Source of the DNA: Candidatus Zambryskiibacteriota bacterium
GTDB lineage: Bacteria; Patescibacteriota; Minisyncoccia; Phycocordibacterales; WO2-35-19
Reading direction: 5' to 3'
DNA: 60,200 nt
NCBI GenBank assembly: GCA_003233455.1
Contig: QILQ01000011.1
Coordinates: 1-60,200 of the forward strand
Part shown: positions 3,579-57,248 of the stretch, one piece after another
How the letters are laid out: each line of letters starts with the position of its first letter
Numbering within the stretch: the first letter of the stretch is position 1
The notes under the pieces: generated by a model
What the model saw: the letters and a program-made list of their open reading frames with translations, nothing else
Told to the model about the DNA's origin: nothing
The model's database searches: none
Made by a program: the position numbers and the translations under genes

Positions 3579-4724
3579 ATGAAAAAAAAGGATAAAAAAA
3601 TAAAACCCAAAGAAAGTCAAAAAGTTTTTGTGGGATTATCTGGAGGAGTGGATAGTGCGGTATCAGCGGCTCTGCTTCAAAAAGAAGGATATGAAGTTAT
3701 CGGAGTTTTTATAAAAGCTTGGACTCCGGCAGGCTATCCTTGCACTTGGAAAGAAGACCGAAGAAGCGCTATGAGAGTAGCCGCTATTTTAAATATTCCT
3801 TTTATTACTTTGGATTTAGAAAAAGAATATAAAAAAGAAGTGGTGGATTATATGATTACCGAGTATAAAAAAGGCAGGACCCCAAATCCAGATGTAATGT
3901 GCAATAAAGAAATAAAGTTTGGATATTTTTTGAAATTCGCTTTAAAAAATGGAGCTGATTTTGTAGCCACAGGACATTATGTAAGAAGCCCAACATCGGA
4001 TATTGGGCTTGCCCAATATCCGATGTTGGGCTACCAACTTCTGGAAGGTTCTGATAAAAACAAAGACCAATCATATTTTCTTTGGACTTTAACTCAAAAA
4101 CAACTCAAACATATTTTATTTCCAATAGGAAATTTACAAAAAATTGAAGTGAGAAAATTAGCGAAAAAATTTAATTTACCCCAAGCGACCAAAAAAGACA
4201 GTCAAGGACTTTGTTTTTTAGGTAAAGTAGATATGAAAGAATTTTTAGCTAGATATATCACATCAAAAAAAGGAAAGGTTTTGAATGAAAAAGAGGAAGT
4301 AATCGGTTATCATAACGGAGCTTTATTTTTTACTATTGGTGAACGACATAGATTTACCATTACTAAAAAAACTACAAAAGAAACTCCTTTATATGTAGTA
4401 GCAAAAGATATTAAAAAAAATACTATTACTGTCGCTCCAAAAATTATTATACCACACTCAAAAAGCCAAGGGGAACCCTTGACATTAAAAGATACAAACT
4501 GGATTTTAGGTGAAATTTCAGATATAAGTAAAAATTTATTTTGCCGTATCAGATATCGCCAAAAAAAAGTTAAATGCAAAATAAATATTTCAAATAATAA
4601 AAATAAAGAAGAAGCGAAAATAATTTTTGATAAACCTCAAGCTGGAGTTTCAACCGGACAATCTTTAGTTTTGTATTATAAAGATATCTGTCTTGGTGGG
4701 GGAATTATTGATAACGTTAATTAA
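3579..4724 (+). CDS. mnmA: tRNA 2-thiouridine(34) synthase MnmA
   Basis: PP-loop VGLSGGVDSAV, ATGHYVR, NKDQSYFL; carries two in-frame palindromic inserts. Confidence 0.92.
   Translation: MKKKDKKIKPKESQKVFVGLSGGVDSAVSAALLQKEGYEVIGVFIKAWTPAGYPCTWKEDRRSAMRVAAILNIPFITLDLEKEYKKEVVDYMITEYKKGRTPNPDVMCNKEIKFGYFLKFALKNGADFVATGHYVRSPTSDIGLAQYPMLGYQLLEGSDKNKDQSYFLWTLTQKQLKHILFPIGNLQKIEVRKLAKKFNLPQATKKDSQGLCFLGKVDMKEFLARYITSKKGKVLNEKEEVIGYHNGALFFTIGERHRFTITKKTTKETPLYVVAKDIKKNTITVAPKIIIPHSKSQGEPLTLKDTNWILGEISDISKNLFCRIRYRQKKVKCKINISNNKNKEEAKIIFDKPQAGVSTGQSLVLYYKDICLGGGIIDNVN
3987..4032. repeat. 46-bp palindrome (two inverted AGCCCAACATCGGATATTGGGCT units) in frame inside mnmA
   Basis: agcccaacatcggatattgggct/tgcccaatatccgatgttgggct; 22-bp arms pair perfectly and only the 2 central nt do not; encodes SPTSDIGLAQYPMLGY in a loop that varies between MnmA homologues. 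Confidence 0.9.
4446..4483. repeat. half copy of the about 60-bp palindromic element, embedded in the mnmA coding sequence
   Basis: attataccaca-ctcaaaaagc-caagggGAAcccttg matches the left arm plus core of the intergenic elements at 7559, 22535 and 31193; encodes IIPHSKSQGEPLTL. Confidence 0.7.
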
Positions 4725-4761
4725 TTTGTTAATAAATCCCTAACCTGTTAAAATTAACTTA

Positions 4762-5601: not shown

Positions 5602-5607
5602 AACGGC

Positions 5608-7514: not shown

Positions 7515-7558
7515 AGTAGTAAGTATAGAATAACCAATTTTTATAAAAAAAGCAAATA

Positions 7559-7621
7559 AATTATACCACATTTATTCCTAGGAAGAGGGGAACCCTCTTG
7601 TTTTTGAGGTGTGTTATAATT
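7559..7621. repeat. about 60-bp palindromic element copy A1 (divergent -10-like arms around a GC hairpin)
   Basis: aattataccaca...ggaagagggGAAccctctt-gttttt...tgtgttataatt; arms are inverted repeats with 1 mismatch; lies between divergent genes. Confidence 0.8.
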
Positions 7622-7667
7622 TTTTTAATTTGGAAATAAAATTTTTTTATTGTAAAATAGTAATGAG

Positions 7668-8015
7668 ATGAAAAATAAAACTGTATTTATAGGACACCCC
7701 ATAGCTGGCGATATTCAAAGAAACATTAAAAAAGTTCTCCAAATTTGTGAAGGGGTTCATACTCATAATATAATTCCAGTAGCCCCATATCTTGTTTCTC
7801 TTCAATATCTTAATGACGAAGTGGTTGAAGATAGACAACTTGGTATGGAAGCAAACAATGAATGTTTGCGTCGTAAATATATAGACGAACTCTGGCTTTA
7901 TGGAGATCGTATTTCTTCTGGTATGTAAAGAGAGATTCTACTCGCTCAAGAGTTTGGTATTCCTGTGGTAGCCAAAACAGAAGGAACTCAAAGAGATCTA
8001 AATAATATTAAATAA
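7668..8015 (+). pseudogene. DUF4406/nucleoside 2-deoxyribosyltransferase-like gene interrupted by an in-frame TAA (7926-7928)
   Basis: The frame continues after the TAA for 28 more codons. The junction reads ISSGM*REILLAQEFGIPVV, which keeps the family S-x-G-x-x-x-E...G-I-P-V spacing across the stop. Confidence 0.55.
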
Positions 8016-8016
8016 A

Positions 8017-9788: not shown

Positions 9789-9811
9789 AGCCCAAAGTCC
9801 GACTTTGGGTT
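9789..9811. terminator. AGCCCAAAGTCCGACTTTGGGTT hairpin (family member) just after the alaS stop
   Basis: 10-bp-stem hairpin 3 nt after the stop, followed by tttaataaaaaaa; same sequence family as 21500 and 52341. Confidence 0.65.
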
Positions 9812-9824: not shown

Positions 9825-10529
9825 ATGCAAAGAAAAAATAATTTCACTGAAGGAGAATTTTATCATCTTTATAACAGAGGAAACAGTAAACAAAATATTT
9901 TTCTTGATAATCAAGACAAAAGAAGATTTATAAAAATGCTGTATCTTTCCAATTCAAAAAAACGTATGAATTTTCGGGAAGATATTGTAAAGAAAAAAAT
10001 AGATGTTTGGGAATTTGATAGAGGAAAATCTATTGTCTCAATTGGTGCCTGGGTACTCATGCCAAACCATTTTCATATTTTTATAACTCCAACATCTAGC
10101 CCTACATCGGATGTTGGGTTAAATAGAGTTAGTTTTTTTATGAAGAAACTTTGCATATCTTATTCAAAGTATTTTAACAAAAAATATAAACGTACAGGCA
10201 GTTTATTTGAGACCAATTTTAAAAGTTCTTTTATTGATTCAGATCGATATTTAAAATACCTTTTTTCTTATATTCATTTAAACCCTGTTAAACTTATTGA
10301 TTCAAAATGGAAAGAAAACGGCATAAAAGATATAAAGAAAACAAATAATTTTCTGGAAAATTATGAATGGAGTAGTTATAAAGATTATTGTGGTGAAAAA
10401 AGAATACAAGAAAAAATTCTTTCAAAAAAAGATTTCCCAAAATATTTTGATTATCCAAAAGTATTTAAAGATGAAATATTTGATTGGTTATTATTTAGCC
10501 CTACATCGGATGTTGGGTATAAAATTTAA
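9825..10529 (+). CDS. IS200/RayT-like HUH-Y1 tyrosine transposase
   Basis: FYHLYNRGN, HUH motif MPNHFHIFI, catalytic-Tyr motif YIHLNPVK; paralogous to 44022..44702. Confidence 0.75.
   Translation: MQRKNNFTEGEFYHLYNRGNSKQNIFLDNQDKRRFIKMLYLSNSKKRMNFREDIVKKKIDVWEFDRGKSIVSIGAWVLMPNHFHIFITPTSSPTSDVGLNRVSFFMKKLCISYSKYFNKKYKRTGSLFETNFKSSFIDSDRYLKYLFSYIHLNPVKLIDSKWKENGIKDIKKTNNFLENYEWSSYKDYCGEKRIQEKILSKKDFPKYFDYPKVFKDEIFDWLLFSPTSDVGYKI
10098..10120. repeat. AGCCCTACATCGGATGTTGGGTT hairpin inside the transposase gene (after the HUH motif)
   Basis: Encodes SPTSDVGL, the same peptide as the mnmA insert. Confidence 0.8.
10497..10519. repeat. AGCCCTACATCGGATGTTGGGTA hairpin at the 3' end of the transposase gene
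   Basis: Direct repeat of 10098-10120 (22 of 23 nt identical; only the last nt differs); encodes the C-terminal SPTSDVGYKI. Confidence 0.8.
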
Positions 10530-20878: not shown

Positions 20879-22522
20879 ATGACTCAAAAAGAAGCTTTGG
20901 ATATTTTAAAAACTGGCAGAAATGTTTTTTTAACCGGTGCGGCCGGCAGTGGCAAGACTTATGTTTTAAGAGAATATATAGACTATTTAAAAAACCTTGA
21001 CGCCAACATAGGCATCACAGCTTCTACTGGTATCGCCGCTACTCATATGGGTGGTATTACCATTCATTCTTGGAGTGGTATCGGCATTAGAGATAATTTA
21101 GATAGAAGCGATCTTAAAGAAATCGCGGATAAAAAATATGTCAGAAATAAAGTGGCGAAAGCTTCAGTGCTTATTATAGATGAGATATCAATGCTTCATC
21201 ATTTTAGACTTGACCTTATTGATAAAGTGATCAAGGAAATAAAAAACTCATCGGAAGCATTTGGAGGAATGCAAGTTGTTTTTTGCGGTGATTTTTTTCA
21301 ACTGCCACCAGTCAGCAGACCTTCGGACCCGGAAGCTTTTTTTGTTTATCATTCGGATACTTGGAAAAATTTAAATTTAAAAGTTTGTTATTTATCCGAA
21401 CAACACCGACAAAATGATACCGAATATTTAAAGATTTTAAATGCCATCAGAAGCTCTTCCATTTCGGAAGAAATTATAAAAATCTTAAAAAAAAGTTCTA
21501 GCCCAAAGTCCAACTTTGGGCTGGAGTCAACTAAACTCTATTCTCATAATAAAAATGTTAATGCTGAAAATGAAATGGAATTAAAAAATATATCCGGCAA
21601 AATGTTTGAATATAAAATGCAAGAAAGAGGCGGAAAAAATTTAATAAACTCCTTAAAAAAAAGTTGCTTAGCTCCGGAAATTTTAAAATTAAAAGAAGGG
21701 GCTAAAGTAATGTTTATTAAAAATAATTTTGATAAAGGTTATGTTAATGGCACTTTAGGCGTGGTGATTAAGTGCAATTTAGGAGAAATAAAAGTAAAGA
21801 TTCTTGCTGGTAAAATTATAGAAGCAGAAAAAGAAAGTTGGCGAATTGAAGAAGATGGCAGAAGCAAGGCGGAGATAACCCAATATCCACTTCGGCTCGC
21901 TTGGGCCATCACAATTCATAAAAGTCAAGGTATGTCGTTAGACGCCGCTGAAATTGATTTATCCGGTTCTTTTGAAAGGGGAATGGGTTACGTGGCTCTT
22001 TCCAGAGTGCGTTCGCTTCAAGGACTTTTTCTAAAAGGTTTAAATGAAATGGCTCTTAAAGTAAACGAAGAAGTTTTAGAATTTGACAATCAATTTAAAA
22101 AACTCTCTAAAACTAATTCTTTTCATATTAAAACTATGGGTGAAGAAAAATTGGAGAGAATGCAAAAAGAGTTTGCAGATAAAATTAAAGGCAAAAAACC
22201 AAAAGAAAAAAAACTGGATACAATCTCGGAAACTAAAAAAATGCTGGATGAAGGAATGAATATAAAAAATATTGCTAAAGAGAGAGGATTAAAAATCGGC
22301 ACTATTTTAGACCATATAGAAAAAATAAAAGAAAAAAATCCGAAATACAATATTTACAATCTCCAAAACGGCATACCTAAAACTAAATTTAAAGAAATCT
22401 ATAAAACTTTTCATAAAGTGGGAATAAGCGAAGGCGGTTTTTATAAACTGGCTCCAATCAAAGATTTGCTTGGTTCTAAATATTCCTATGAAGACCTCCG
22501 TTTGGTCCGTTTGTTTTTGTAA
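20879..22522 (+). CDS. PIF1/RecD-like ATP-dependent DNA helicase with C-terminal HTH-like extension
   Basis: Walker A LTGAAGSGKTY, Walker B LIIDEISM, FCGDFFQLPPV, AITIHKSQG; ATG at 20879 chosen (track start 20837 overlaps the upstream gene). Confidence 0.8.
   Translation: MTQKEALDILKTGRNVFLTGAAGSGKTYVLREYIDYLKNLDANIGITASTGIAATHMGGITIHSWSGIGIRDNLDRSDLKEIADKKYVRNKVAKASVLIIDEISMLHHFRLDLIDKVIKEIKNSSEAFGGMQVVFCGDFFQLPPVSRPSDPEAFFVYHSDTWKNLNLKVCYLSEQHRQNDTEYLKILNAIRSSSISEEIIKILKKSSSPKSNFGLESTKLYSHNKNVNAENEMELKNISGKMFEYKMQERGGKNLINSLKKSCLAPEILKLKEGAKVMFIKNNFDKGYVNGTLGVVIKCNLGEIKVKILAGKIIEAEKESWRIEEDGRSKAEITQYPLRLAWAITIHKSQGMSLDAAEIDLSGSFERGMGYVALSRVRSLQGLFLKGLNEMALKVNEEVLEFDNQFKKLSKTNSFHIKTMGEEKLERMQKEFADKIKGKKPKEKKLDTISETKKMLDEGMNIKNIAKERGLKIGTILDHIEKIKEKNPKYNIYNLQNGIPKTKFKEIYKTFHKVGISEGGFYKLAPIKDLLGSKYSYEDLRLVRLFL
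21500..21522. repeat. AGCCCAAAGTCCAACTTTGGGCT hairpin inserted in frame in the helicase gene
   Basis: 23-nt hairpin-forming palindrome (10-bp arms, 3-nt centre) encoding SPKSNFGL; same family as 9789 and 52341. Confidence 0.85.
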
Positions 22523-22534
22523 AATATAAAAAAT

Positions 22535-22595
22535 ATTATACCACACCCTAAAATGAAGAGGGTTCCCCTCTTTCTTTTTTAAAATATGGTATAAT
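22535..22595. repeat. about 60-bp palindromic element copy A2 (terminator-like core plus -10-like arms)
   Basis: attataccaca-ccctaaaat-gaagagggTTCccctctt-tctttttt...tatggtataat; downstream of the helicase and upstream of the cupin gene. Confidence 0.8.
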
Positions 22596-22629
22596 AATTG
22601 TGAATTATTATTAATTAATAAAATAAAAA

Positions 22630-24032: not shown

Positions 24033-24037
24033 AAAAA

Positions 24038-24060
24038 GTGTCAAGGGGAACCCTTGACAC
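24038..24060 (+). terminator. GTGTCAAGGG-GAA-CCCTTGACAC hairpin after trpS (repeat family member)
   Basis: Perfect 10-bp stem 6 nt after the stop; the same hairpin with a flipped loop occurs inside cysS at 50023-50045. Confidence 0.65.
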
Positions 24061-24103
24061 TTAGCTGATGCAAAAAATATGGTTTTCTGCTATATTTTAA
24101 AAT

Positions 24104-31193: not shown

Positions 31194-31251
31194 CTACACC
31201 ACACTTCAAAAGTATGAGGGTTCCCCTCTTCTTTTTAGGATGTGGTGTAAT
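31193..31251. repeat. about 60-bp palindromic element copy A3
   Basis: actacaccaca-cttcaaaagt-atgagggTTCccctc-ttcttttt-agga-tgtggtgtaat; starts at the murG stop codon. Confidence 0.8.
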
Positions 31252-31290
31252 TAAATTTTTAATATTCTAATATCTGATATAATTGAAATT

Positions 31291-32646
31291 ATGAATAATA
31301 AAAAAATAATAGTTCGTTTTGCACCTTCGCCGACAGGACCTTTTCATTTAGGAAGTGCCAGAACCGCTTTATACAATTATCTTTTTGCTAAAAAAGAAAA
31401 TGGCGTTATACTTTTGCGTATTGAAGATACCGATAAAGAGAGATCAGAAAAAAAATTTGAAGATGAAATATACGATAGTTTGAAATGGCTTGGTATTGAT
31501 TATAGTAAAAAAATATTAAAATCATCTGAAAGAACAAAAATTTATAAAGAAAAGTTGCAAGAACTTATTAAAAATAATTTCGCTTATATTTCCAAAGAAA
31601 GTGAAGGGCAAAATAAAGAAGTTGTCCGATTTAAAAACCCCGGAGGAAAAATTAAATTTACCGATTTAATAAGAGGGAATATAGAAGAAGATATTTCTAA
31701 TCTAAAAGATTTTATTATCGCTAAAAATTTAGAAGAACCTCTTTATCATTTAGCGGTAGTGGTTGATGATATTGAAAGTGGCGTTACTCATATTATAAGA
31801 GGGGAAGATCATATTTCAAATACCGCTCGTCAAATTTTAATTGCCAGAGCTTTAGGAAAAAAAGAGGATTTTCAGTATGCTCATTTACCTTTAATTCTTG
31901 CTAAAGATAAAAGTAAATTATCCAAAAGAAAACACGGAAAAATTGTCTCTCTTAAAAAATATAAAGACCTTGGATATTCTCCGGAAGCTATTTTGAATTT
32001 TTTGGCTTTTATAGGTTGGAATCCCGGAGGAGAAAAAGAGATTTTTAGTACGAAAGAACTTATTAAAACTTTTGATATTAAAAAAGTTCAAAAAAAAGGA
32101 GGCATTTTCAATATAGAAAAACTTAATTGGTTGAATCGCGAATATATACTCCGACAACCAAAAATTGAACAGCTAGAAAATTTCAGATATCAATTAACAC
32201 TTGCTAACGCGAAATTTAAAAATCATCAAAAATTAAATAATCAAAAATTTGTAGAAAACTTTTTAGAAATAATATTAAACAAAATACATAGATGGGCAGA
32301 AGTGGAAGAATTGGTAGAAGCAAGAGAATTTGACTATTTATTTGAAAAACCAATTTTAGATGTAAACAAAATCTTGTGGAAAAAGCAGGATAAAAATAAC
32401 GCTAGAGAAAAATTAAAAAAAGTATTGGAAATAATCACCTCACCTAATCTAGAGTCTCAAGATAATCTAAAATGGGATGAGGTTATGAAATACGCTGAAA
32501 AAGAAGGGAAAGGAGAAGTTCTTTGGCCTCTGCGATATGCTTTATCAGGTAGAGAAAAATCGCCAGATCCCTTCACTTTAATAAAAATTTTAGGAGCGGG
32601 GGAGAGCAAAAAAAGAATTGAAAAAGCCATTAAATTACTCACATAA
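31291..32646 (+). CDS. gltX: glutamate--tRNA ligase
   Basis: RFAPSPTGPFHLGSART (HIGH), KLSKR; TGaTATAAT lies 7 nt before the ATG. Confidence 0.95.
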   Translation: MNNKKIIVRFAPSPTGPFHLGSARTALYNYLFAKKENGVILLRIEDTDKERSEKKFEDEIYDSLKWLGIDYSKKILKSSERTKIYKEKLQELIKNNFAYISKESEGQNKEVVRFKNPGGKIKFTDLIRGNIEEDISNLKDFIIAKNLEEPLYHLAVVVDDIESGVTHIIRGEDHISNTARQILIARALGKKEDFQYAHLPLILAKDKSKLSKRKHGKIVSLKKYKDLGYSPEAILNFLAFIGWNPGGEKEIFSTKELIKTFDIKKVQKKGGIFNIEKLNWLNREYILRQPKIEQLENFRYQLTLANAKFKNHQKLNNQKFVENFLEIILNKIHRWAEVEELVEAREFDYLFEKPILDVNKILWKKQDKNNAREKLKKVLEIITSPNLESQDNLKWDEVMKYAEKEGKGEVLWPLRYALSGREKSPDPFTLIKILGAGESKKRIEKAIKLLT

Positions 32647-38442: not shown

Positions 38443-38563
38443 GCCATGATCTCCCCGCCCAAAAAAAGAGGCGAGGCCAAACTCGCCCAAGAGAACTCAC
38501 TTTTGCGGTCGTTTTGTATCCCAACAATCGGCCGTTTCTTTTTTATAAAAAAATGATAGAGAT

Positions 38564-38600
38564 AGAGGGTTCCCCTCTTACTTTTGAGGTGTGTTGTAAT
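38564..38600. repeat. palindromic element copy A4 (core plus right arm only)
   Basis: agagggTTCccctct-tactttt-gagg-tgtgttgtaat; sits at the 3' boundary of the GC-rich segment. Confidence 0.7.
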
Positions 38601-38769
38601 AATTATTTTTAATTTTTTAACTCAAAACTTTCCTAAAGGGAGACCTTGGATAATTTAAATTAATCCCCTTTCTATCAATTTTTTGATGTTGATAACGTCT
38701 ATTTTAAATCCAATACTTAAAAATATCTTAGCAAAAAATTAAATCTAAATTGTGTTATAATGTATAATT

Positions 38770-39354
38770 ATGAACAAAATTCCTAAAATATTAATACAAT
38801 ATGGAAAACTTATAGACCCTTTATATATATTTTATTGCCAAAACAACCCGAGTTTAAAAAAAAGAGGTTGGAACGATTGGATTCCTCCAAAACCAAAAGA
38901 GTTAAAAAGACGCATTTTAGCATACAAAAAAGAATGGAAGAAATATGAGAAAAAAGTACTTACTGAAATTTCTGGATCATTAGAACTTTCTTTTAACAGA
39001 GAGGTTATAGATGTATTTATTGTAAGTGGTATTTCAAGAGCAACAAGTCACCCACTCATTATTAAAAGTGGTTTTAAACCAAAAGAGTTTGTGATTACCC
39101 TTGTTCACGAACTTATCCATCAAATTTTTGATGGAAAAGATCTTAAATTTAGCAAAGTTCTCTTAATTAAAGATAAAGACAAAACAGTAAGTAATCATAT
39201 TCTGGTTTATGCTTTACTTCGTAAAATATTTAAAAATAAACCCGAAATGCTTAAAATAATATCTGATATAAAATATAATAAAGATTATAAAAAAGCTTAT
39301 GAAATTTCCAAACCTTACGAAGATATATTGAAATTTTTTAGAAAAAATAAATGA
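38770..39354 (+). CDS. hypothetical protein with HExxH motif (putative zinc metallopeptidase-like)
   Basis: LVHELIHQIF; no signal peptide; TGtTATAAT lies 8 nt before the ATG. Confidence 0.55.
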   Translation: MNKIPKILIQYGKLIDPLYIFYCQNNPSLKKRGWNDWIPPKPKELKRRILAYKKEWKKYEKKVLTEISGSLELSFNREVIDVFIVSGISRATSHPLIIKSGFKPKEFVITLVHELIHQIFDGKDLKFSKVLLIKDKDKTVSNHILVYALLRKIFKNKPEMLKIISDIKYNKDYKKAYEISKPYEDILKFFRKNK

Positions 39355-39575: not shown

Positions 39576-39616
39576 ATCCAAAGTACAGATTGTACAAACC
39601 CTGTCTATTCAAAAGT

Positions 39617-39654
39617 AAGAGGGTTCCCCTTCTACTTTTGGAGTGTGGTGTAAT
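39617..39654. repeat. palindromic element copy A5 (imperfect core plus right arm)
   Basis: aagagggTTCcccttct-acttttgga-g-tgtggtgtaat. Confidence 0.65.
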
Positions 39655-39711
39655 AATTTTATTATCTCATCTGTATAAGTTTTCTTCCTTTGGCAGTTTT
39701 CATCTGATATA

Positions 39712-43918: not shown

Positions 43919-43967
43919 CTTACTTATTTCTTATAATAATAACATAATTTCTCCCACCTCTCATTTA

Positions 43968-44008
43968 AGGAAGAGGGTTCCCCTCTTCCTTTTGACTTGT
44001 GGTATAAT
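43968..44008. repeat. palindromic element copy A6 (upstream flank of the second Y1 transposase)
   Basis: aggaagagggTTCccctcttcct-tttgact-tgtggtataat. Confidence 0.8.
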
Positions 44009-44021
44009 AATTATTAACAAA

Positions 44022-44702
44022 ATGAAAAACAGAGATTATAAAAAATTTGAAAAAGGTGGTATTTATCATGTTTATAACAGAGGTGTTGGCAAAATGAAAA
44101 TATTTGAAGACAAAAAAGATTTTAGAGTATTTTTATATAGATTAAAAGAAAATTTATTCCCAGAAAAAAATAAAATTAAAAATTCTATCCCGAAAAAGAA
44201 AATTTATAATAGAAAATTACTTCCGCCAAAATCTTTTAATCTTATTTGCTACTGTTTAATGCCAAATCATTTTCATTTACTGATGCAACAGAAAACAGAT
44301 CTGCCTATAAGCAAAATAATCTCAAAAATATGTACAGGATATTCAATGTATTTCAATAAAAAAAATAACCGTGTTGGCTCATTATTTCAAGATGCATTTA
44401 AAGCTGTAAGAATTGAAAACAATGAACAATTATTATGGACATCATTATATATTCATGAAAATCCTGTAAAATCTGGAATAATCAAAAAACTTGAAGATTA
44501 TGAATGGAGCAGTTTTTTGGATTACACCAAATCAAACCCAAATACTTTATGTAAAAAAGATATATTACTTGGTCAATTTATTTCACCTAAATCATATTTG
44601 AAATATTTCAAAAATCCGGAAGAAAATAAAAAGGCTCAAAATCAAATGATTGGTTTTCAAGATTTATTTATTGATGAAGATTTCTTAGAAAATTTCTTTT
44701 AA
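44022..44702 (+). CDS. IS200/RayT-like HUH-Y1 tyrosine transposase (second copy)
   Basis: IYHVYNRGV, MPNHFHLLM (HUH), LYIHENPVK (catalytic Tyr). ATG at 44022 chosen; the longer track ORF from 43809 overlaps the permease gene. Confidence 0.75.
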   Translation: MKNRDYKKFEKGGIYHVYNRGVGKMKIFEDKKDFRVFLYRLKENLFPEKNKIKNSIPKKKIYNRKLLPPKSFNLICYCLMPNHFHLLMQQKTDLPISKIISKICTGYSMYFNKKNNRVGSLFQDAFKAVRIENNEQLLWTSLYIHENPVKSGIIKKLEDYEWSSFLDYTKSNPNTLCKKDILLGQFISPKSYLKYFKNPEENKKAQNQMIGFQDLFIDEDFLENFF

Positions 44703-44705
44703 TAA

Positions 44706-44766
44706 ATTACAACACAATTTTTTTTAGGAAGAGGGGAACCCTCTTCCTTTTTACTTGTGGTATAAT
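44706..44766. repeat. about 60-bp palindromic element copy A7 (downstream flank of the second Y1 transposase)
   Basis: attacaacaca-atttttttt-aggaagagggGAAccctcttcct-ttttact-tgtggtataat; stem and right arm match A6 but the loop is flipped. Confidence 0.85.
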
Positions 44767-44771
44767 AATAC

Positions 44772-45308
44772 TTATTTCAAACCTTTGCAATTTGCAGCGG
44801 GGAGATAGCCGGAAGCACGAGCTTCTTTAATTGAATTAAAAGTTATCAGATTTTTGGGAGAAATTCGTTTAGCTCCGGAGCACCACGGATAATGATATTT
44901 GGCACCATTTTTTGATGCCACTACTTGTCCTGAATTTGTTTGTAATGAGTTTGTTGAATTTATAGAAGGACTTGCTCCCACCACTGCAGTTTGTTGGATA
45001 GAATGAATAGAAGGTGTATTTTGAGTTTCCTTTTTAAAGTAAGGGTGATTAAGGGATGAGTTATTCAAAATCCTCACTGGAGGTCTCCTTTCTTGCAATA
45101 CCGAAAGTCTACCCAAAGAAAAAGATATTATCGCTATAAAAATAATAATAAAAGGAATAAAATACCTGCCATTTAAAAAATTTATCAACTCCCCTTTCCA
45201 ATCATTTCTTTTTTTCGCTTGCTCCGATATTGCCGAAAGATTAAAATCTTCTTCTTTTACATATTCCTCTATTTCTTCTTTTTTCTCTTTTTTGGGAGAT
45301 TTAATCAT
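44772..45308 (-). CDS. membrane-anchored protein with C-terminal Cys-containing Ada-Zn/sunset-like domain
   Basis: TM FIPFIIIFIAIISFSLG; C-terminal ASKNGAKYHYPWCSGAKRISPKNLITFNSIKEARASGYLPAANC. Confidence 0.5.
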   Translation of the reverse strand: MIKSPKKEKKEEIEEYVKEEDFNLSAISEQAKKRNDWKGELINFLNGRYFIPFIIIFIAIISFSLGRLSVLQERRPPVRILNNSSLNHPYFKKETQNTPSIHSIQQTAVVGASPSINSTNSLQTNSGQVVASKNGAKYHYPWCSGAKRISPKNLITFNSIKEARASGYLPAANCKGLK

Positions 45309-48976: not shown

Positions 48977-50415
48977 TGGATATTTATTTAAGCAATACTT
49001 TAACCGGTAAAAAAGAAAAATTCAAGCCGATAAATAAAAAAGAAGTTGGTATTTATTCTTGCGGGCCGACTGTTTATTGGAATCAACATATAGGTCATAT
49101 GTATGCTTATGTCCAGTGGGATTGTTTGGTTCGTTCTTTAAATTATCTGGGTTATAAAACAAAATGGGTTATGAACTTAACCGATGTTGGACATTTGACC
49201 GGAGACAATGAAGGCAATGCCGATACCGGCGAGGACAAAATGGAAAAAGGAGCTAAAAGAGAAGGTCTTTCTGTTTGGGAAATTGCCGATAAATATATTT
49301 TGCAATTCAAGGAAAGTTTGCGAGCTTTGAATATTAAAGAACCAGATATTTTAAGCAGAGCCACCAAACATATTGAAGAACAAATTGATTTAATAAAAAA
49401 AATTGAAAATAACGGTTTTGCCTACAAAACTAAAACGGGATTGGTTTTTGACACTGCTAAATTTCCCAAATACGCGAAGTTTGCTCACCTTAATTTAAAA
49501 GATCAAAAAGCCGGCAGTCGGGTGGAAGTGGATCTGGAGAAAAAAAAGCCTTGGGATTTTTTGCTCTGGATTACAAACCAACCGAATCATATTATGAAAT
49601 GGTCATCACCTTGGGGAGTCGGTTTTCCGGGTTGGCATATAGAATGCACCGCTATGTCCACTAAATATCTCGGTCAAACTTTTGACATTCATACTGGTGG
49701 CAAAGAACACATCGCCGTTCATCATACTAATGAAATCGCTCAAGCTTTTGGAGCTTTCAATCATCAATCGGCAAATTATTGGCTCCACAATGAATGGCTT
49801 TCGTTTAACGGTAAAAAAATAAGTAAATCTCTCGGAAATTCAATTTTAGTTTCCGATTTAAAAAATAAAGGTTTTGACCCATTATCTTTGAGATATTTAA
49901 TTATGACCAGTCATTATAAAACAGGTTTAAATTTCACTTGGGAAAGTTTAAAAGGGGCTCAAACTGCTTATTTCAAATTGAAAGAAATTTTTGTCAATCT
50001 AAAAAATGAAGTATCAAGGGAAGTGTCAAGGGTTCCCCTTGACACTTTTAACAAATACAAAAAAGAATTCGCACAAGCTTTGGCGGATGATTTGAATGTA
50101 GCTAAAGCCATCGGATTACTCTGGCAAGTTGTAAAATTAAAAGATATAAACGCCAAAACAAAATATGAATTACTTTTAGATTTTGATAAAGTTCTCGGTT
50201 TAAGACTTTCTGAAACAGATTTACCAACGATTGAATTAACCAATGAAGAAATACCGACAAAAGTTTTAGAATTAAAAAAAGAAAGAGACACAGCCAGAAA
50301 AGAAAAAAATTGGCAAAAAAGCGATGAATTAAGAGAGCAAATTAAAAAAGAAGGTTATATTTTAGAAGATAAAAATAATGAAAGCGTTCTCAAAAAAATA
50401 TCTTCATCAATATAA
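48973..50415 (+). CDS. cysS: cysteine--tRNA ligase
   Basis: CGPTVYWNQHIGHMYAY (HIGH), KISKSLGN (KMSKS); ATGA overlap with the corA stop suggests a start at 48973 (track start is GTG at 48967). Confidence 0.93.
   Translation: MMDIYLSNTLTGKKEKFKPINKKEVGIYSCGPTVYWNQHIGHMYAYVQWDCLVRSLNYLGYKTKWVMNLTDVGHLTGDNEGNADTGEDKMEKGAKREGLSVWEIADKYILQFKESLRALNIKEPDILSRATKHIEEQIDLIKKIENNGFAYKTKTGLVFDTAKFPKYAKFAHLNLKDQKAGSRVEVDLEKKKPWDFLLWITNQPNHIMKWSSPWGVGFPGWHIECTAMSTKYLGQTFDIHTGGKEHIAVHHTNEIAQAFGAFNHQSANYWLHNEWLSFNGKKISKSLGNSILVSDLKNKGFDPLSLRYLIMTSHYKTGLNFTWESLKGAQTAYFKLKEIFVNLKNEVSREVSRVPLDTFNKYKKEFAQALADDLNVAKAIGLLWQVVKLKDINAKTKYELLLDFDKVLGLRLSETDLPTIELTNEEIPTKVLELKKERDTARKEKNWQKSDELREQIKKEGYILEDKNNESVLKKISSSI
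50023..50045. repeat. GTGTCAAGGG-TTC-CCCTTGACAC hairpin inserted in frame in cysS
   Basis: Preceded by the partial duplicate gtatcaaggga (50011-50021); encodes EVSREVSRVPLDTF. Confidence 0.8.
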
Positions 50416-50434
50416 TTTTATTTTTTTATAATAT

Positions 50435-50800
50435 CACCTCACCCCATTTAATCTTTAGTATAATATTAAGCATATCGCTTCCCCTCTCCTTACTAAGGAG
50501 AGGGGCTAGGGGTGAGGTGGTAAAATAATGGGTAGAGGGGTGAGGGTGATAAATAAAATTTTATTTTATTTAGTTTTTATTCAAAAACCTCACCCCATAT
50601 AAATTTATTACAAAGTTTGAGTTTCTCACTTCCCCTCTCCTTACTAAGGAGAGGGGCTAGGGGTGAGGTGGTAAAATAATGGGTAGAGGGAGGGGGGGTG
50701 AAGTGGTAAATAAAAGAGTAGGGGTGAGGTGGTAAAAAGAAGAGTAGGGGTGAAAGTGAAATAGTAGGTAGGGGGGGTTAGGGGTGAGGTGGTAAAATGA
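50435..50800 (+). repeat. G-rich repeat region: two 151-bp tandem units with nested hairpins, plus degenerate GGGGTGAGGTGGTAAA copies
   Basis: An identical 62-nt block occurs at 50478-50539 and 50629-50690. cacctcacccc (50435-45) pairs with ggggtgaggtg (50509-19) around the hairpin cccctctcctta-c-taaggagagggg (50481-50505). The GGGGTGAGGTGG motif recurs at about 50720 and 50780, with a variant at about 50747. Confidence 0.85.
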
Positions 50801-50809: not shown

Positions 50810-51184
50810 TTAAAATAAATCGCTAAAAAAGTTTTTGATTTTTTGCCAAGTGGAAATTTTTAAATTTAGAACAGTGGGATTTTTTTCTCCCTCCACAATA
50901 ATAGCCACTTTCTCCCCCGCTCCCGCCACATCCAATTTTTTGCGAATCTCAAATTCAATCCCTTCTTTAGTTTTCAATTTTTTTAATAATTCTTTCAAAA
51001 ATTCGTTTCTTTTTTCCAGTTCAGATACTTTTTTTTTCATCTGGACTAAAACTTTGTCAACTCTTTTCTTTTTTTTATAAACCCCATTGACAGAATTTAA
51101 AAAAAGCGCCAATATAAAGAGCAGAGCTATAAATATAATTATCCTCTTCCACCTGCTTTCTTCCCTTTTTTTTATACCTCGCAT
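50810..51184 (-). CDS. FtsB/DivIC-like septum formation initiator
   Basis: Single TM then a coiled coil (VSELEKRNEFLKELLKKLKTKEGIEFEIRKKL). Confidence 0.65.
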   Translation of the reverse strand: MRGIKKREESRWKRIIIFIALLFILALFLNSVNGVYKKKKRVDKVLVQMKKKVSELEKRNEFLKELLKKLKTKEGIEFEIRKKLDVAGAGEKVAIIVEGEKNPTVLNLKISTWQKIKNFFSDLF

Positions 51185-51299
51185 TATGTTAATATAATAT
51201 CATGCTTTGGAGTCCAAAAGCCCGAAAAATAATAAAAATACTGTGGTTCATAATAGCCATAATTTTGATATTTGGAATGGTTCTTTTGTATATGCCATT

Positions 51300-53180
51300 T
51301 TAATTCGGCTTCATTATTTTTATAAAGACATCTTGAGGAATTCTGATTTTCCCTCTTTTTTTCATTTTCTTTTTACCTTTTTTTTGTTTCTCTCGCAATT
51401 TCATTTTACGAGTAATATCGCCCCCATACATATGTTGAGTAACATCTTTGCGAAAAGCGGAAACGGTCCGCGAGGCTATAATTTTACCCGCCGCTTTGGT
51501 CTGGATTTTAAGTTCAAACATTTGACGAGGTAAAAGTTTTTTAAGTTTGTCGGCTATGGCTTCAGCTTCTTTTTTAACAATTCTTTTTGAAACCACTCTG
51601 GCTAAAGCTGGTTCTTCTTCTCCGTTGATTAAAACGCTTAATTTAGTCACATTAGCTTCCCGCATTGCCGTTTTTTCGTATGAAAGAGAAGCATAACCTT
51701 GAGAAATACTTTTGAGCTCATTAAAAAAATCTCGCATCAATTCCCGCAATGGCATAGAAGCGTTTATTTTTGTTTTGTCATCGCCAAAACTTTCAGTAAC
51801 GCTAACCTCAGCCTCATGTTCATAAAGCAAGGGTAAAAGATTGCCCGCGTATTTAGAAAGAACTATAATATTTATCTTAACCCAAGGCTCTTCCACTTTT
51901 GCCAAAAGTTCATCTTCGGGAAAAAAAGAGGACGAGTAAATTTTTTCTTGCAGATTTTTTGCTTCTTTTTTATATTTTATATTATAAGTGATGGAAGGTT
52001 GAGTAATTATCAAAGAAAGATTAAATTCCCTTTTTAATCTCTCGGCTATAATTTCAAGATGGAGCATTCCTAAAAAACCGCACCTAAAACCCTTACCTAA
52101 AACACTTGAAACCTCTTCTTCATAATGAAGAGAGGAGTCGGTTAATTTAAGTCTGGCTAAAGATTGTCTCAGTAATACTAAATCATTTTGGTCTTCGGGA
52201 AAAATAGAAGCCCAAACAACCGGCTTCGGCACACTATAACCCGACAATGCAACAGCGATTTCTTTTTCTTTGCCGATAGTATCCCCAACCGAAACGATAC
52301 CCGGAGTTTTAATACCGGTTACAATATACCCTATTTCTCCCGCCCAAAGTCCAACTTTGGGCTTTTCCTCTGGAGTAAAAATACCGACTTCCAAAGAAAT
52401 AAACTTTTGGTCGGCTATTCTAAAAATCAAATTTTCTCTGGCAGACACTTTTCCTTTCATTATCCTGACAAAAACAATAATACCTCTATGAATTGAATAT
52501 TTAAAATCAAAAACCAAAGCTTGGAAAGGTTCTTGTTGCCAAGGGTCACCCTTGAACTGCCCCTGCCCCAAAGGGTGACCCTTGGCAACATTAGGCCCGG
52601 GGATTTTTTCTACAATGGCGATTAAAAGATTTTCTACTCCAAATCCGGTTTTGCCAGAAGTCTCTATTATATCTTCTTCTTTACAACCTATGAGCGAAAT
52701 TATTTCTTCTTTTATTTCATCCACTCTAGCCAAAGGAGAATCCACTTTGCTCAAAGCCGGTATAATAACTAAATCTTGTTCTTTAGCCATAGCTAAAACC
52801 GAGAGAGTCTGAGCTTCCACACCTTGAGTAGCATCAACCAAAAGGACTACCCCCTCCACCGCCCTGAGAGCTCTGGAAACTTCATAAGAAAAATCAATAT
52901 GACCTGGAGTATCTATCAGATTCAGAACATACTGTTCTGAATCTGAAATTTTCAATTTAGAATTTTCAATTTTCAATTTTGGGGACCAAACCATTCGGAC
53001 CGGTTGCATTTTTATGGTAATACCCCGCTCTCTTTCAAGTTCCATTGAATCCAAAACTTGCTCCTTCATTTTGCGTTTTTCAATGGCACCGGTTAACTCA
53101 AGCATCCTATCGGCCAGTGTAGATTTGCCGTGGTCTATATGAGCTATAATTCCAAAATTTCTAATATTGATATTTTCCAT
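51300..53180 (-). CDS. lepA: elongation factor 4 (LepA)
   Basis: IRNFGIIAHIDHGKSTLADR, NLIDTPGH, LepA C-terminal domain; carries at least three palindromic segments. Confidence 0.95.
   Translation of the reverse strand: MENINIRNFGIIAHIDHGKSTLADRMLELTGAIEKRKMKEQVLDSMELERERGITIKMQPVRMVWSPKLKIENSKLKISDSEQYVLNLIDTPGHIDFSYEVSRALRAVEGVVLLVDATQGVEAQTLSVLAMAKEQDLVIIPALSKVDSPLARVDEIKEEIISLIGCKEEDIIETSGKTGFGVENLLIAIVEKIPGPNVAKGHPLGQGQFKGDPWQQEPFQALVFDFKYSIHRGIIVFVRIMKGKVSARENLIFRIADQKFISLEVGIFTPEEKPKVGLWAGEIGYIVTGIKTPGIVSVGDTIGKEKEIAVALSGYSVPKPVVWASIFPEDQNDLVLLRQSLARLKLTDSSLHYEEEVSSVLGKGFRCGFLGMLHLEIIAERLKREFNLSLIITQPSITYNIKYKKEAKNLQEKIYSSSFFPEDELLAKVEEPWVKINIIVLSKYAGNLLPLLYEHEAEVSVTESFGDDKTKINASMPLRELMRDFFNELKSISQGYASLSYEKTAMREANVTKLSVLINGEEEPALARVVSKRIVKKEAEAIADKLKKLLPRQMFELKIQTKAAGKIIASRTVSAFRKDVTQHMYGGDITRKMKLREKQKKGKKKMKKRGKIRIPQDVFIKIMKPN
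52341..52363. repeat. (C)GCCCAAAGTCCAACTTTGGGCT hairpin in frame in lepA
   Basis: Same family as 21500 and 9789; read on the minus strand as KPKVGLWA. Confidence 0.85.
52535..52587. repeat. 53-bp palindrome in lepA: 18-bp perfect inverted arms ttgccaagggtcaccctt / aagggtgacccttggcaa, 17-nt spacer
   Basis: Each arm itself contains an AAGGG-TCA/TGA-CCCTT mini-hairpin; encodes the extra loop NVAKGHPLGQGQFKGDPWQQ. Confidence 0.85.
52919..52943. repeat. 25-bp palindrome gattcagaac-atact-gttctgaatc in lepA, next to an aattttc tandem tract
   Basis: 10-bp perfect arms. One arm encodes conserved VLNL (upstream of DTPGH) and the other encodes non-conserved DSEQ. The adjacent KLKIENSKLKI looks like extra sequence. 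Confidence 0.6.
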
Positions 53181-53188
53181 TTTATTTT

Positions 53189-54832: not shown

Positions 54833-54890
54833 TGCTTACCAGAATAACACATTCAAAAATCCCTCTCAATAATTTTATATAGTTATGAAA

Positions 54891-57248
54891 TTACTCTGCC
54901 ACTGGAGGTTCGGTTCTTAATTGGGGAGCTTTGACTGAAGATTTAGCGTTTGAAAATATAGCTTTACCGGCTTTCATATTGGACAAGATAAAACTTATTT
55001 CTTTATTTTTAGGATTAGCGACATTCAATTCCTTAAATTGCTTGATAGCTTCTTTTTTCTTGCCGATTTTATAATCAGAGATTCCAAGGAAATATTTAGC
55101 GTTGGCATAATTTGGAACCAAAACAATGGCTCTGCCGAAAGCATCTGCCGCGCCAGCAAAATTTTTCTGATTATATTTAAGCAAACCGAGCTGGAAATAA
55201 AGTCCAGAATTATTCGGGTCAATCAAAGTGGCCGCTTCCACCGATTTCACCGCAGCGGGAATATTTTTGGAAGCAACTTCAAGTCTGGCTAAAGTAAAAT
55301 AAGCATCGGTATAATTGCTTTTTAATTTCAAAGCTTTCGCTATATTCACTTTGGCTCCTTTAATATCTCCGGCTAAAGTATCTAATCTGGCTAAAGCGAG
55401 TGGCACTGAAGGATTATTAGGCGAGCGGAGAGCCGCTTCGGCATAAGCGTCGCGAGCATTTTTCAAGGAACCTTTTATACCATTTGAAGCCAGGATTTCA
55501 TAAACTCTACCCAAAGCAAACCAGTTTTGAAAATTATTATTATCTTCCTTAATAGCTTTTTTAGCTGAAGCGATAGAGTTAGCCATCAGACCTTGAGCTT
55601 CTTTTTTTACAGAGTCGGTAATTTGATTTTTATTGGTAATATTTCCCAAGACTTTTCCTAAATCAATCAAAGAAACTTGAGTTAAACCACGCCAATAAAC
55701 ATCACTTGACGCGATATTGATTGATTTAGCGGCCGCTTTTCTAACCAATTGAATATTGCCTGTTTTTTGATATTCCAACACTCCTTTTTTAAAAGTAACA
55801 GTAGCCACCGCCCTTTCCAAAACGAAATAACCACCAGCCACCGACATAATAAGCAAGACCACAATAGAAAGAACTGAAATAAAATTAGTTTTTGGATTGG
55901 AAAATATATTGATTCTCCAAAGACCTATTATTCCCTGAGGAACCAAAGTGGCAGTGAAAAGTCCGGTGAATATAAAAGTCAGAGCTAAAACAGTAATACT
56001 GGGATTGTAGAGAAAGAGTATAATCCACAAATAAAGAGAAACCAGAAAAGATGAGGTAGCCAAATATCTGGAACGATTGGAATTCGCTTGAGCAAATATA
56101 GCTTTCACTCCGCTAAGAGTATACATACCAATAAAAATCAATAACGCCAACAATCCCAGCAAACCGGTGGTAATAGCGATGGTAGGTATAAAACCGGATC
56201 CTCCATAAAAATTGCTATTCCAAAATTGAGTTTGATTTATTTCTAACGGCTTGTGAGCTGACCAAAATTGAGCGAAACGATTTGGACCAATTCCTAAAGC
56301 AAAATTCTTTTGCCAAGAATCCATCGTTAAATTCATAGTGGTTCCAAAATTAGGTCTGACTTCGGTAGTTTGAACTCTCATTGTTTTTGAAAGAAAACCG
56401 CCAATACCTGTTCCTCCCAAAAGGAGAATTACTGAAACCACTAAAATAACAAGAGAAGAAAGAGAGATTTTACGATCTCCTTGAGGGTTCCCCTCTTCCC
56501 GACCGACAGACCAAGACAAAATATAAACAAAGAAAACGAGAGAAATAATACCGAGAATAACAACCACTGGCATAAAATTCGCCGCTCCTATAAACAAAAC
56601 CGATAAAGCCATTAACAGATACAAAACGATTTTCATCCTCTTGGATACTTCGGTCATATTAAGAGCACAAAGAGCCATTATGGTGGCGGCGCCAAAAATT
56701 ATAGCGGTATTAATCACTCCGCCGGAGAGAAATAATGGTAATTTTGAAGCAAAGGAAGTTGGTAATAAAGAAGCGCCAAAAATTCCCAATAAAGTATAGA
56801 CAGCCAATGCCAGAGATGAATAAATAAAAGCGGAGATAACTTTACTCACCACTTTAATACTTTTAACCGCCACCATCGTCATAAACAAAGAAAAAACCAA
56901 TATCAATATAGAACCGGAAGTTCCAATATCAAATATTGAACCTACAATGGAAGTTTTAATCGCGCCGGAAAAAACAGAAGATAATAAAGCCACTAAAGCG
57001 AATATTCCTATCGGTATCAGATATTTAGCTTTGGGTATTTCAACTATTCCAGTTGAAAGAACCGAGGATAAAAAAATGGCGAATATTGCCACCAAACCGG
57101 TAGCCAAAAGTGTTATTTTAGCCACATATAAACTGACTCCCAACACCGGTATAAAAAATACCGGCAAAAGAAAAACAAATACCGATAAAATCAGACCCAA
57201 CTTTTTAACCAATACATTTTTTGAACTATTTTGTATATTTTGTTCCAT
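54891..57248 (-). CDS. O-antigen ligase-like polytopic membrane protein with C-terminal TPR repeats
   Basis: More than ten TM segments followed by several TPR-like repeats (NNFQNWFALGRVYE..., YTDAYFTLARLE..., SGLYFQLGLLKY...). Confidence 0.7.
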   Translation of the reverse strand: MEQNIQNSSKNVLVKKLGLILSVFVFLLPVFFIPVLGVSLYVAKITLLATGLVAIFAIFLSSVLSTGIVEIPKAKYLIPIGIFALVALLSSVFSGAIKTSIVGSIFDIGTSGSILILVFSLFMTMVAVKSIKVVSKVISAFIYSSLALAVYTLLGIFGASLLPTSFASKLPLFLSGGVINTAIIFGAATIMALCALNMTEVSKRMKIVLYLLMALSVLFIGAANFMPVVVILGIISLVFFVYILSWSVGREEGNPQGDRKISLSSLVILVVSVILLLGGTGIGGFLSKTMRVQTTEVRPNFGTTMNLTMDSWQKNFALGIGPNRFAQFWSAHKPLEINQTQFWNSNFYGGSGFIPTIAITTGLLGLLALLIFIGMYTLSGVKAIFAQANSNRSRYLATSSFLVSLYLWIILFLYNPSITVLALTFIFTGLFTATLVPQGIIGLWRINIFSNPKTNFISVLSIVVLLIMSVAGGYFVLERAVATVTFKKGVLEYQKTGNIQLVRKAAAKSINIASSDVYWRGLTQVSLIDLGKVLGNITNKNQITDSVKKEAQGLMANSIASAKKAIKEDNNNFQNWFALGRVYEILASNGIKGSLKNARDAYAEAALRSPNNPSVPLALARLDTLAGDIKGAKVNIAKALKLKSNYTDAYFTLARLEVASKNIPAAVKSVEAATLIDPNNSGLYFQLGLLKYNQKNFAGAADAFGRAIVLVPNYANAKYFLGISDYKIGKKKEAIKQFKELNVANPKNKEISFILSNMKAGKAIFSNAKSSVKAPQLRTEPPVAE
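56482..56499. repeat. GAGGG-TTC-CCCTC core hairpin in frame inside the membrane-protein gene
   Basis: tgagggttcccctcttcc; minus-strand reading gives GREEGNPQGD in a loop between TM segments. Confidence 0.7.

Follow-up and report, generated by a model that had tools for sequence, protein, structure and literature searches.

Results

A transposase gene bracketed by inverted hairpin units

The window analysed here is the whole 60,200-base contig QILQ01000011.1 of a Candidatus Zambryskiibacteriota bacterium (Patescibacteria; about 33% GC), and all counts for the host genome refer to these 60.2 kb. By protein comparison the contig belongs to the class Paceibacteria (Parcubacteria) and is Zambryskibacteria/Taylorbacteria-like. 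The gene at 44022-44702 encodes a putative REP-associated tyrosine transposase (RAYT; REP, repetitive extragenic palindromic sequence) and is abutted on both sides by a small hairpin unit, here called family A, that recurs through the window. The original prediction had described the hairpins and overlooked this gene; it is the RAYT gene flanked by the repeats that identifies the system as REP-RAYT. The locus comprises the following features (scores in bits are from the covariance model described below).

44022-44702, + strand: RAYT gene, Y1/HUH tyrosine transposase of 226 aa; HUH motif H83-F84-H85, tyrosine motif Y143-I-H-E-N-P
43963-44019, + strand: REP 5' of the RAYT gene; AAGGAAGAGGG-TTC-CCCTCTTCCTT, T-run, box TGTGGTATAAT at 43998-44008; 69.8 bits; -18.4 kcal/mol
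44695-44777, unstranded: two-armed REP 3' of the RAYT gene; loop GAA on the + strand; boxes 44706-44716 (-) and 44756-44766 (+); 69.9 bits (-), 51 bits (+)

The sequences directly abutting the gene are 43963-44019, with a TTC loop, and 44695-44753, with GAA on the + strand; the downstream loop is thereby inverted relative to the upstream one, and in inverted pairs of this kind the box 3' of the TTC loop, the presumptive tag, faces the RAYT gene. These two units gave the two highest covariance-model scores in the window, and both RAYT flanks contain the commonest 16-mers of the window, with 5 occurrences; abundance of RAYT-flanking words is diagnostic of RAYTs in Bertels et al. 2017 (PMC5581495). 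The box at 43998-44008 ends 13 nt ahead of the RAYT ATG and is the predicted promoter of the RAYT gene itself. Apart from one 34%-identical paralogue, the window holds a single copy of the gene: no second close copy was found in it, and no tnpB-like open reading frame (ORF) lies beside the gene.

The protein matched Pfam PF01797 (Y1_Tnp, the IS200-like transposase family; E = 1e-9), and its sole NCBIfam family match was NF047646, 'REP-associated tyrosine transposase' (63.8 bits, E = 1.6e-17). The HUH and Y-x-H-x-N-P motifs are invariant in an alignment of 31 homologues. In a Foldseek search with the AlphaFold2 model (mean predicted local distance difference test score 84, predicted template modelling score 0.84), the best fold match in the PDB was 4ER8, the E. 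coli TnpA-REP with its REP hairpin (E = 8e-7, template modelling score 0.68), and the TnpA structures of ISDra2, IS608 and IS200 ranked below it (E = 1e-4 to 1e-3). From its sequence, we read the protein as a divergent branch of the RAYTs. Some of its homologues carry the label "RayT" in the automatic annotation of the Joint Genome Institute (JGI).

Family A is a directional hairpin-plus-box unit

The family-A unit is directional and ~45-57 nt long, reaching 83 nt in a two-armed form. It consists, in order, of a GC-cored hairpin of 7-10 bp (AAGAGGG-TTC-CCCTCTT, with a 3-nt loop), a spacer of 9-12 nt that is mostly T-rich, and the 11-nt box TGTGGTATAAT. With up to 2 mismatches allowed, the box stands in the units at 4446, 7560, 22535, 31193 and 44706 on the - strand and at 7610, 22585, 31241, 38590, 39644, 43998 and 44756 on the + strand. 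The same box occurs hairpin-free directly 5' of genes at 181, 1267, 17188, 38751 and 58051 (-), and since it stands alone just before genes it is taken as the local extended -10 consensus, as had been proposed for the arms.

The core pattern GGG(TTC/GAA)CCC was matched 11 times in the window and 2 times in a comparison set of 1,265,464 bases from 80 related Paceibacteria loci; individual loci of relatives bear L-numbers below. The matches are centred at 4474, 7591, 22564, 24049, 31222, 38571, 39625, 43979, 44737, 50034 and 56489, so that all eleven cores claimed by the original prediction were recovered at correctly given positions. The longer pattern AGAGGG-N3-CCCTCT (up to 1 mismatch) had 7 matches in the window against 0.07 expected from shuffles. 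All copies were oriented by their loop and aligned with those of relatives (21 in total), and the covariance model was built from that alignment. It recovered 8 full family-A units in the window (55-70 bits) and nothing further of that quality; on the 1.27 Mb of relatives the same census gave one weak match. Half of the units (4/8; 7591, 22564, 31222 and 44737) also scored 40-51 bits on the second strand and are two-armed. The dispersed and intragenic units are as follows.

7549-7631, unstranded: two-armed dispersed REP; loop GAA; boxes 7560-7570 (-) and 7610-7620 (+); 63.8 and 41.7 bits; between the divergent genes of an M16 peptidase (-, real start ~7514) and a DUF7768 protein (+, 7668); native M16 promoter TTGGTTATTCT still present nearer the gene
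22524-22606, unstranded: two-armed dispersed REP; loop TTC; 63.4 and 48.8 bits; between a PIF1-like helicase gene (end 22522) and a cupin gene (start 22630)
31182-31262, unstranded: two-armed dispersed REP; loop TTC; 61.2 and 39.9 bits; between murG-like (end 31193) and gltX-like (start 31291) genes; native promoter TCTGATATAAT kept beside it at 31273
38555-38611, + strand: one-armed dispersed REP; loop TTC; box 38590-38600; 61.4 bits; native promoter of the next gene at 38751
39609-39665, + strand: one-armed dispersed REP; box 39644-39654; 63.4 bits; -16.2 kcal/mol; long, imperfect stem CAAAAGTAAGAGGG/CCCTTCTACTTTTG; box points into a convergent gene
4435-4490, - strand: full unit within the mnmA coding sequence; box 4446-4456, hairpin 4465-4483; 55.4 bits; core CCAAGGG-GAA-CCCTTGAC; encodes ..IIPHSKSQGEPLTL..

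The arms are real, and the copies are not uniform: the 11 cores divide into the 8 full units, 2 copies of another palindrome (family B) and 1 bare core. When copies are oriented by the loop, the box lies on its 3' side in 21/21 aligned copies from the window and relatives. The proposal that the loop swaps between GAA and TTC while the flanks stay fixed holds literally, with the T-run and box as reference, at 7591 and 44737 only. In 5 copies the spacer 3' of the TTC strand is A-rich and the better T-run and box lie on the opposite side, and we therefore do not claim that the polarity rule (tag 3' of TTC) is mechanistically meaningful.

Hairpin and box are kept while the spacer varies. In the aligned stems 89% of cells are paired; of the 9 pairs, the inner 4 are invariant and the outer 5 have all changed on both sides; the outer stem carries compensatory changes. 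On four of five stem-pairing measures no shuffled set reached the observed value, and on the fifth 2/500 did. The predicted folding energies of the RNA hairpins lie between -8.5 and -18.5 kcal/mol, and the two strongest of family A adjoin the ORF at 44022-44702. Rfam and tRNA scans of the window gave zero matches, which indicates that the hairpins do not derive from any known RNA gene.

The RAYT gene is syntenic in relatives and the solo copies are lineage-specific

The closest public relatives are ~79% identical in TrpS and CysS. Orthologues of the RAYT with 71-83% identity were found in four other assemblies (L285/L286, L287, L288 and L289), within the shared gene order FtsX / RAYT / hypothetical / L27 / L9 / S41 peptidase / CorA / CysS; this fixed syntenic slot at such divergence argues for vertical inheritance rather than hopping of the RAYT. 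On either side of the orthologous genes stand the hairpin, T-run and box seen in the window. A unit like 43963-44019 lies upstream of those in L287, L288 and L289, and the downstream copies in L287 and L289 have GAA, as in the window. The flanking loops are inverted also in L287, L289 and L076; in L288 and L285 both have the same sense. All copies in L285, namely the two flanking ones and a third 5.8 kb off, share a mutated TCA loop, a pattern that points to homogenisation or to amplification and spread within that genome.

The association extends well beyond the orthologues. An exact inverted flank match of at least 12 nt was present at 35/70 homologue loci, which come from Patescibacteria and a handful of contigs with an archaeal label, compared with 2/331 shifted control windows, and the sequence of the flanking hairpin changes from lineage to lineage. 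On a Vogelbacteria contig, a 33%-identical homologue lies between inverted AGAGGG-TTC/GAA-CCCTCT copies, whose hairpins adjoin GTAG/GTAT and TGTGGATAA, with TGTGG beside the same hairpin. CCCTCT is followed by GTAG or GTAT beside the stem in these Vogelbacteria and in the further distant relatives L076, L021 and L048. In most relatives hairpins were seen beside the RAYT gene only, dispersed copies being few within +/-10 kb. Contigs with close RAYT homologues are mostly 1-4 kb long, consistent with metagenome assemblies breaking at repeats.

Several sites filled in the window are empty in relatives. No element lies at the position orthologous to 7591 in L290 and L291. The spacer downstream of trpS (site 24049) measures 13-17 nt and is empty in L122 and L123, and the spacers orthologous to 31222 in L122, L127 and L131 hold the promoter alone, without a hairpin; altogether, no such hairpin was found in the orthologous spacers of these two sites in L122, L123, L127, L128 and L131. 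At the site of 22524-22606 a small hairpin of another kind is found in L121 and L122, and the palindrome at 50021-50049 is absent from cysS of L285 and L289. The identity of at most ~80% to these relatives precludes a base-by-base comparison of filled with empty sites and the definition of a target site. The mnmA unit, in contrast to the sites at 7591, 24049 and 31222, is shared: L290 and L291 have almost identical DNA at these codons, which makes it an old element and rules out its recent insertion. The solo copies are dispersed in this lineage only. The view that the elements repeat a single module and are not independent terminators is borne out.

Two neighbouring arrangements were noted in the relatives. 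In L291 the M16 peptidase gene and alaS are adjacent, 62 nt apart (window 7559-8016 against L291 15128-15200); as the window has both the REP at 7591 and the DUF7768 gene (7668-7928) between them, the two may have arrived jointly. In L123 (19120-19775) the murG-gltX spacer contains an extra small ORF flanked by different palindromes, CCCTCTTAA-n-TTAAGAGGG, with the same half-sites in opposite order, which form another lineage-specific palindrome family.

Pattern scans of public collections extended this picture little. A 15-mer scan of genome contigs returned mainly chance matches in unrelated phyla and a few matches of like architecture in the candidate phyla radiation (CPR). The strict pattern of hairpin, T-run and TGTG had three metagenome-contig matches, among which L284 was the sole true full copy, and two matches in Bacillales genomes, which were not inspected and are taken as chance. 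The only further contig from the same organism in these collections is a 13.5-kb duplicate of the window end.

Family-A copies resemble terminators placed before promoters

Hairpin and T-run look like an intrinsic terminator on one or both strands for most copies, as the original prediction had it, and most copies also have an upstream A-run, which makes the terminators look bidirectional. In T-type copies the foot of the hairpin lies 14-16 nt before TATAAT. The geometry agrees with that of promoter-coupled terminators: a stem-loop and T-tract stand directly before the -10, with the predicted 3' end at most 35 bp from the start. It is plausible, at slightly less than even odds, that each copy acts as a terminator plus promoter, and termination followed by restart of transcription in both directions would be a reading of the same layout. 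At 44737 both boxes, and at 39625 the only one, point towards gene 3' ends. The arms are not native promoters of adjacent genes, and such promoters persist downstream of the arm at 7591, 31222 and 38571.

The extended -10 ends 7-8 nt before the start codon at 1267-1285, 31273-31291 and 38751-38770, and likewise in L122 and L127; this spacing suggests leaderless or near-leaderless mRNAs for several genes.

A second RAYT has its own palindrome family

A paralogue, RAYT2, with a different palindrome family lies in the same window.

9825-10529, + strand: RAYT2; 34% identical to the RAYT at 44022-44702; tblastn E = 5e-23

The RAYT2 palindrome, GCCCAAnnTCSGAnnTTGGGC, occurs upstream of (9790-9810), within (10099-10119) and at the 3' end of (10498-10518) the RAYT2 gene, and again in mnmA (3988 and 4011; 3988-4031), the PIF1-like helicase gene (21501-21521) and lepA (52342-52362). 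Five of the seven copies, read as ..SPTSD(V/I)G.., are intragenic, two of them within the RAYT2 gene itself. RAYT2 orthologues stand in the same place after alaS in L290 and L291, with related flanking palindromes. One RAYT per repeat family, with several such pairs per genome, is the REPIN-RAYT pattern (PMC3337134; REPIN, a REP doublet), REP insertions within RAYT genes are known for subclass 2.4 (PMC6006769), and intragenic REPs have been described before (PMC3733652).

Two adjacent, mutually inverted copies of this family lie in mnmA at 3983-4031 (aa ~136-151), at an ~8-aa insertion, LAQYPMLG, judged relative to the MnmA of E. coli and S. pneumoniae. The spot is hypervariable in length and sequence among close homologues, and together with the paired palindromes this suggests a recurrent insertion hotspot for intragenic palindromes. 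In lepA (- strand), a perfect 21-nt palindrome of the same family encodes PKVGLWA and replaces the segment aligned to TEALEAG of T. thermophilus EF4, with no added length.

Other copies of the core and their coding context

Three of the 11 cores (3/11) are not of family A.

24034-24062, unstranded: family-B palindrome GTGTCAAGGG-GAA-CCCTTGACAC, 2 nt past the trpS stop; 14 bits with the family-A model; -19.4 kcal/mol; no promoter box
50021-50049, unstranded: family-B palindrome within cysS; encodes EVSRVPLDT; beside a 12-nt tandem duplication (EVSR EVSR)
56481-56497, unstranded: core-only copy TGAGGGTTCCCCTCTTC inside the gene of a 785-aa tetratricopeptide-repeat (TPR)/membrane protein (- strand); 1 mismatch; 15 bits, from core positions only

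The two family-B copies, GTGTCAAGGG-N3-CCCTTGACAC, are complementary to each other at 29/29 positions. What had been called shorter versions in or near genes is therefore a mixed set: the mnmA copy is a full, old unit, those at trpS and cysS are a different palindrome, and 56481-56497 has the core only. Neither the mnmA unit, compared with E. coli MnmA or close homologues, nor the cysS palindrome, which sits in the variable CysS linker, changes protein length, and an in-frame insertion like those of the Rickettsia palindromic elements (RPEs) was ruled out for both (4435-4490 and the cysS copy) by homologues of equal length.

In cysS, GAAGT(A/G)TCAAGG is repeated twice at 50008-50031, directly 5' of the palindrome and overlapping it, and local duplication or template switching may have built this palindrome in place. 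Downstream of cysS, 50423-50763 contains G-rich direct repeats, two units of ~124 nt and four 45-nt sub-repeats (TAGGGGTGAGGTGGTAAAA...).

Discussion

Family A as the probable REP partner of the RAYT

We interpret family A as a REP family and as the DNA partner of the RAYT at 44022-44702 in a Patescibacteria genome, with a probability of roughly 0.8. The protein family, the inverted bracketing of the gene and the abundance of its flanking words, which are central to REP-RAYT systems, are all as expected of one. Several observations weigh on the other side. The NF047646 score of the protein lies below the curated 80-bit equivalog cutoff, and its sequence-level match to 4ER8 in the PDB is weak (E = 0.48). 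An unpaired GTAG/CGTC tag at one end of the stem is a usual REP feature (PMC3733652); none adjoins the stem in the window copies, where CC, TC or AC and then the T-run follow. REPINs were not found among the window loci, each of which has one hairpin, the two-armed form having its tag duplicated; doublets do occur beside some homologues elsewhere (L208, L226 and L240). At 61-79% identity to each other over 57 nt, the dispersed copies bear no direct sign of recent movement. Copy numbers of repeat and RAYT rest on 60 kb of host genome, the strict-pattern scans of public collections yielded almost nothing more, and native promoters persist downstream of the box at 7591, 31222 and 38571. Simple insertion leaves the ancient mnmA copy and the non-lengthening intragenic copies unexplained.

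By analogy with E. coli TnpA-REP and IS608 TnpA, the RAYT would bind the hairpin in single-stranded DNA and cut and rejoin beside it. This reaction would be the source of the solo copies, which probably derive from the two masters flanking the gene; the copy at 7591 is like the downstream master (identity 78% over 77 nt), and the TTC copies are like the upstream one. TGTGGTATAAT may be the enzyme's tag, in the role of the E. coli GTAG; TGTGG stands beside the same hairpin even in the distant Vogelbacteria. Hairpin and T-run occupy the -35/spacer position directly ahead of a consensus extended -10, and as a side effect each copy may end the transcript that arrives from upstream and start a new one. 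A DNA uptake sequence, a DnaA-box cluster and parS, all raised by TGTGGATAA in the Vogelbacteria arms, were set aside given the transposase association.

It might be supposed that 44022-44702 and its two hairpins are instead an autonomous insertion sequence (IS) of IS200/IS605 type, with the other copies as solo ends or decayed insertions. The protein does belong to the same Y1/HUH superfamily, the TnpA of IS200, IS608 and ISDra2 are significant fold matches, the NCBIfam RAYT model was matched below its cutoff, and the confinement of hairpins to the gene flanks in most relatives is what such an element would show. We nevertheless think this very unlikely, since the syntenic slot of the gene is unchanged in at least 4 other assemblies (71-83% protein identity), TnpA-REP is the best structural match, and the flanking loops are inverted while IS608-type ends are recognised on one strand; moreover, the window holds one gene plus a 34% paralogue in 60 kb and no tnpB, and solo repeats outnumber the RAYT gene 6:1. 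A different possibility is that a dimeric transcription factor uses the palindrome as its operator, at the -35 of the promoters of a regulon, and that the copies are alike through selection for binding. The exact 6+6 palindrome is centred ~35 nt before the predicted start of the box-driven transcript, core and box are kept while the spacer varies, two copies lie between divergent genes, where a terminator is needless, and a terminator palindrome doubling as a LexA site has been described in a preprint (10.64898/2026.08.19.745784). Covariation of the outer stem is not required of a protein-DNA site, though, and copies lie inside coding sequence and face gene 3' ends; the palindrome varies in sequence among lineages yet always brackets a RAYT homologue, no regulator gene is associated with it, and the adjacent genes are functionally unrelated. 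An operator is accordingly very improbable in our judgement.

The copies could also be ordinary intrinsic terminators abutting ordinary promoters, their likeness being due to an AT-rich genome in which strong hairpins are selected. Promoter-terminator overlap is reported to be common in bacteria (10.64898/2026.08.19.745784), most copies have a terminator-like hairpin and T-run, and the box is the general promoter consensus. This explanation would have to produce identical 15-17-nt cores 7 times against 0.07 expected, when other terminator-like hairpins of the window are unrelated in sequence, and to account for their absence from orthologous sites and from the 1.27 Mb of relatives, for a full unit inside mnmA and for repeats tied to a transposase gene; we give it almost no credence.

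With family A taken as the REP partner of the RAYT, the identity of its tag with a promoter element allows a bolder proposal. The tag recognised by the domesticated RAYT would be the cell's own extended -10, the RAYT would copy terminator-plus-promoter cassettes, and selection on these cassettes, not on the transposase as a parasite, would keep the pair. A fixed hairpin and box with a free spacer, and TGTGG beside the hairpin in Vogelbacteria, are compatible with reading the tag as a promoter; we regard the proposal as unlikely overall. In a sharper version, the tag itself would provide the single-stranded substrate of the RAYT, through the open promoter complex or R-loop that it creates.

Comparison with known systems

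The unit shares with E. coli REP/BIME (bacterial interspersed mosaic element) and its RAYT (4ER8; PMC3479197, PMC2817692) a small GC-rich extragenic hairpin, found mostly after stop codons, and a cognate Y1/HUH transposase that is bracketed by inverted copies and has the closest predicted fold. It differs in having no GTAG at the foot of the stem, an 11-nt tag 9-12 nt away that equals the extended -10, and a 3-nt loop; the protein (~226 aa) has a long C-terminal helical extension and is 18% identical to 4ER8 where the two align. The host genome, from the Patescibacteria, has ~33% GC. As in the REPIN-RAYT systems of Pseudomonas fluorescens SBW25 (PMC3116915, PMC3337134, PMC5581495), the RAYT is apparently present once and passed on vertically, RAYTs and repeat families come in pairs (here two of each in the window), RAYT-flanking 16-mers are the most abundant, and A/T runs near some copies suggest co-option as terminators. 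SBW25 REPINs are doublets that fold into one long hairpin, whereas the hairpin here is short and single, with one or two tags, and the 8 copies in 60 kb have diverged outside core and tag.

Promoter-coupled terminators (Fletcher et al. 2026, 10.64898/2026.08.19.745784) likewise place a stem-loop at -35, a T-tract in the spacer and then the -10, and upstream A-tracts make some of them bidirectional. They are unrelated single-locus sequences mapped by Term-seq and Cappable-seq; the unit described here is repeated, transposase-linked and predicted from sequence, and the distance from predicted RNA 3' end to transcription start is ~17-19 nt compared with a modal 10 nt. In-frame translated palindromes are known as Rickettsia palindromic elements or intragenic REPs (PMC3733652) and occur here in mnmA, cysS and the TPR gene. 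RPEs add a peptide segment, whereas copies of families A and B stand in for a stretch of variable linker of the same length; the RAYT2 family (GCCC..GGGC) is the only one to coincide with an insertion, in mnmA.

Calling the element REP-like was right as to family; the likeness to Correia elements did not hold. Correia elements (CREE/NEMIS) of Neisseria are 100-155 bp long and bounded by terminal inverted repeats of 26 bp; they duplicate a TA target and contain an integration host factor (IHF) site. They are small repeats with outward-facing promoter elements, able to affect neighbouring genes, and no cognate transposase is known for them. The unit here is ~45-83 nt long, its long-range symmetry is limited to the 11-nt box, and it is a hairpin plus tag, 57 nt with one arm and 83 nt with two, that has a RAYT. 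Family A is not a Correia element, and the locus is not an active IS200/IS605 insertion sequence.

Significance

REP-RAYT systems have been characterised almost wholly in Proteobacteria, with surveys extending to Cyanobacteria and Bacteroidetes. A literature search for RAYTs or REPINs in Patescibacteria/CPR found no description, and the surveys examined do not mention the phylum. The repeats offer a strain-typing marker for the clade and a defined in vitro substrate for a CPR enzyme. The combination of hairpin, T-run and consensus -10 ties REP biology to the recently proposed promoter-coupled terminators and is a natural test of whether repeat dispersal rewires transcription-unit boundaries; if the tag is indeed a promoter, such cassettes would have been copied around a streamlined genome of ~1 Mb. 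Two REP-RAYT systems within 60 kb of an ultra-small, streamlined genome, vertically inherited and reaching into coding sequences, would mean that domesticated replicators persist even under strong genome reduction.

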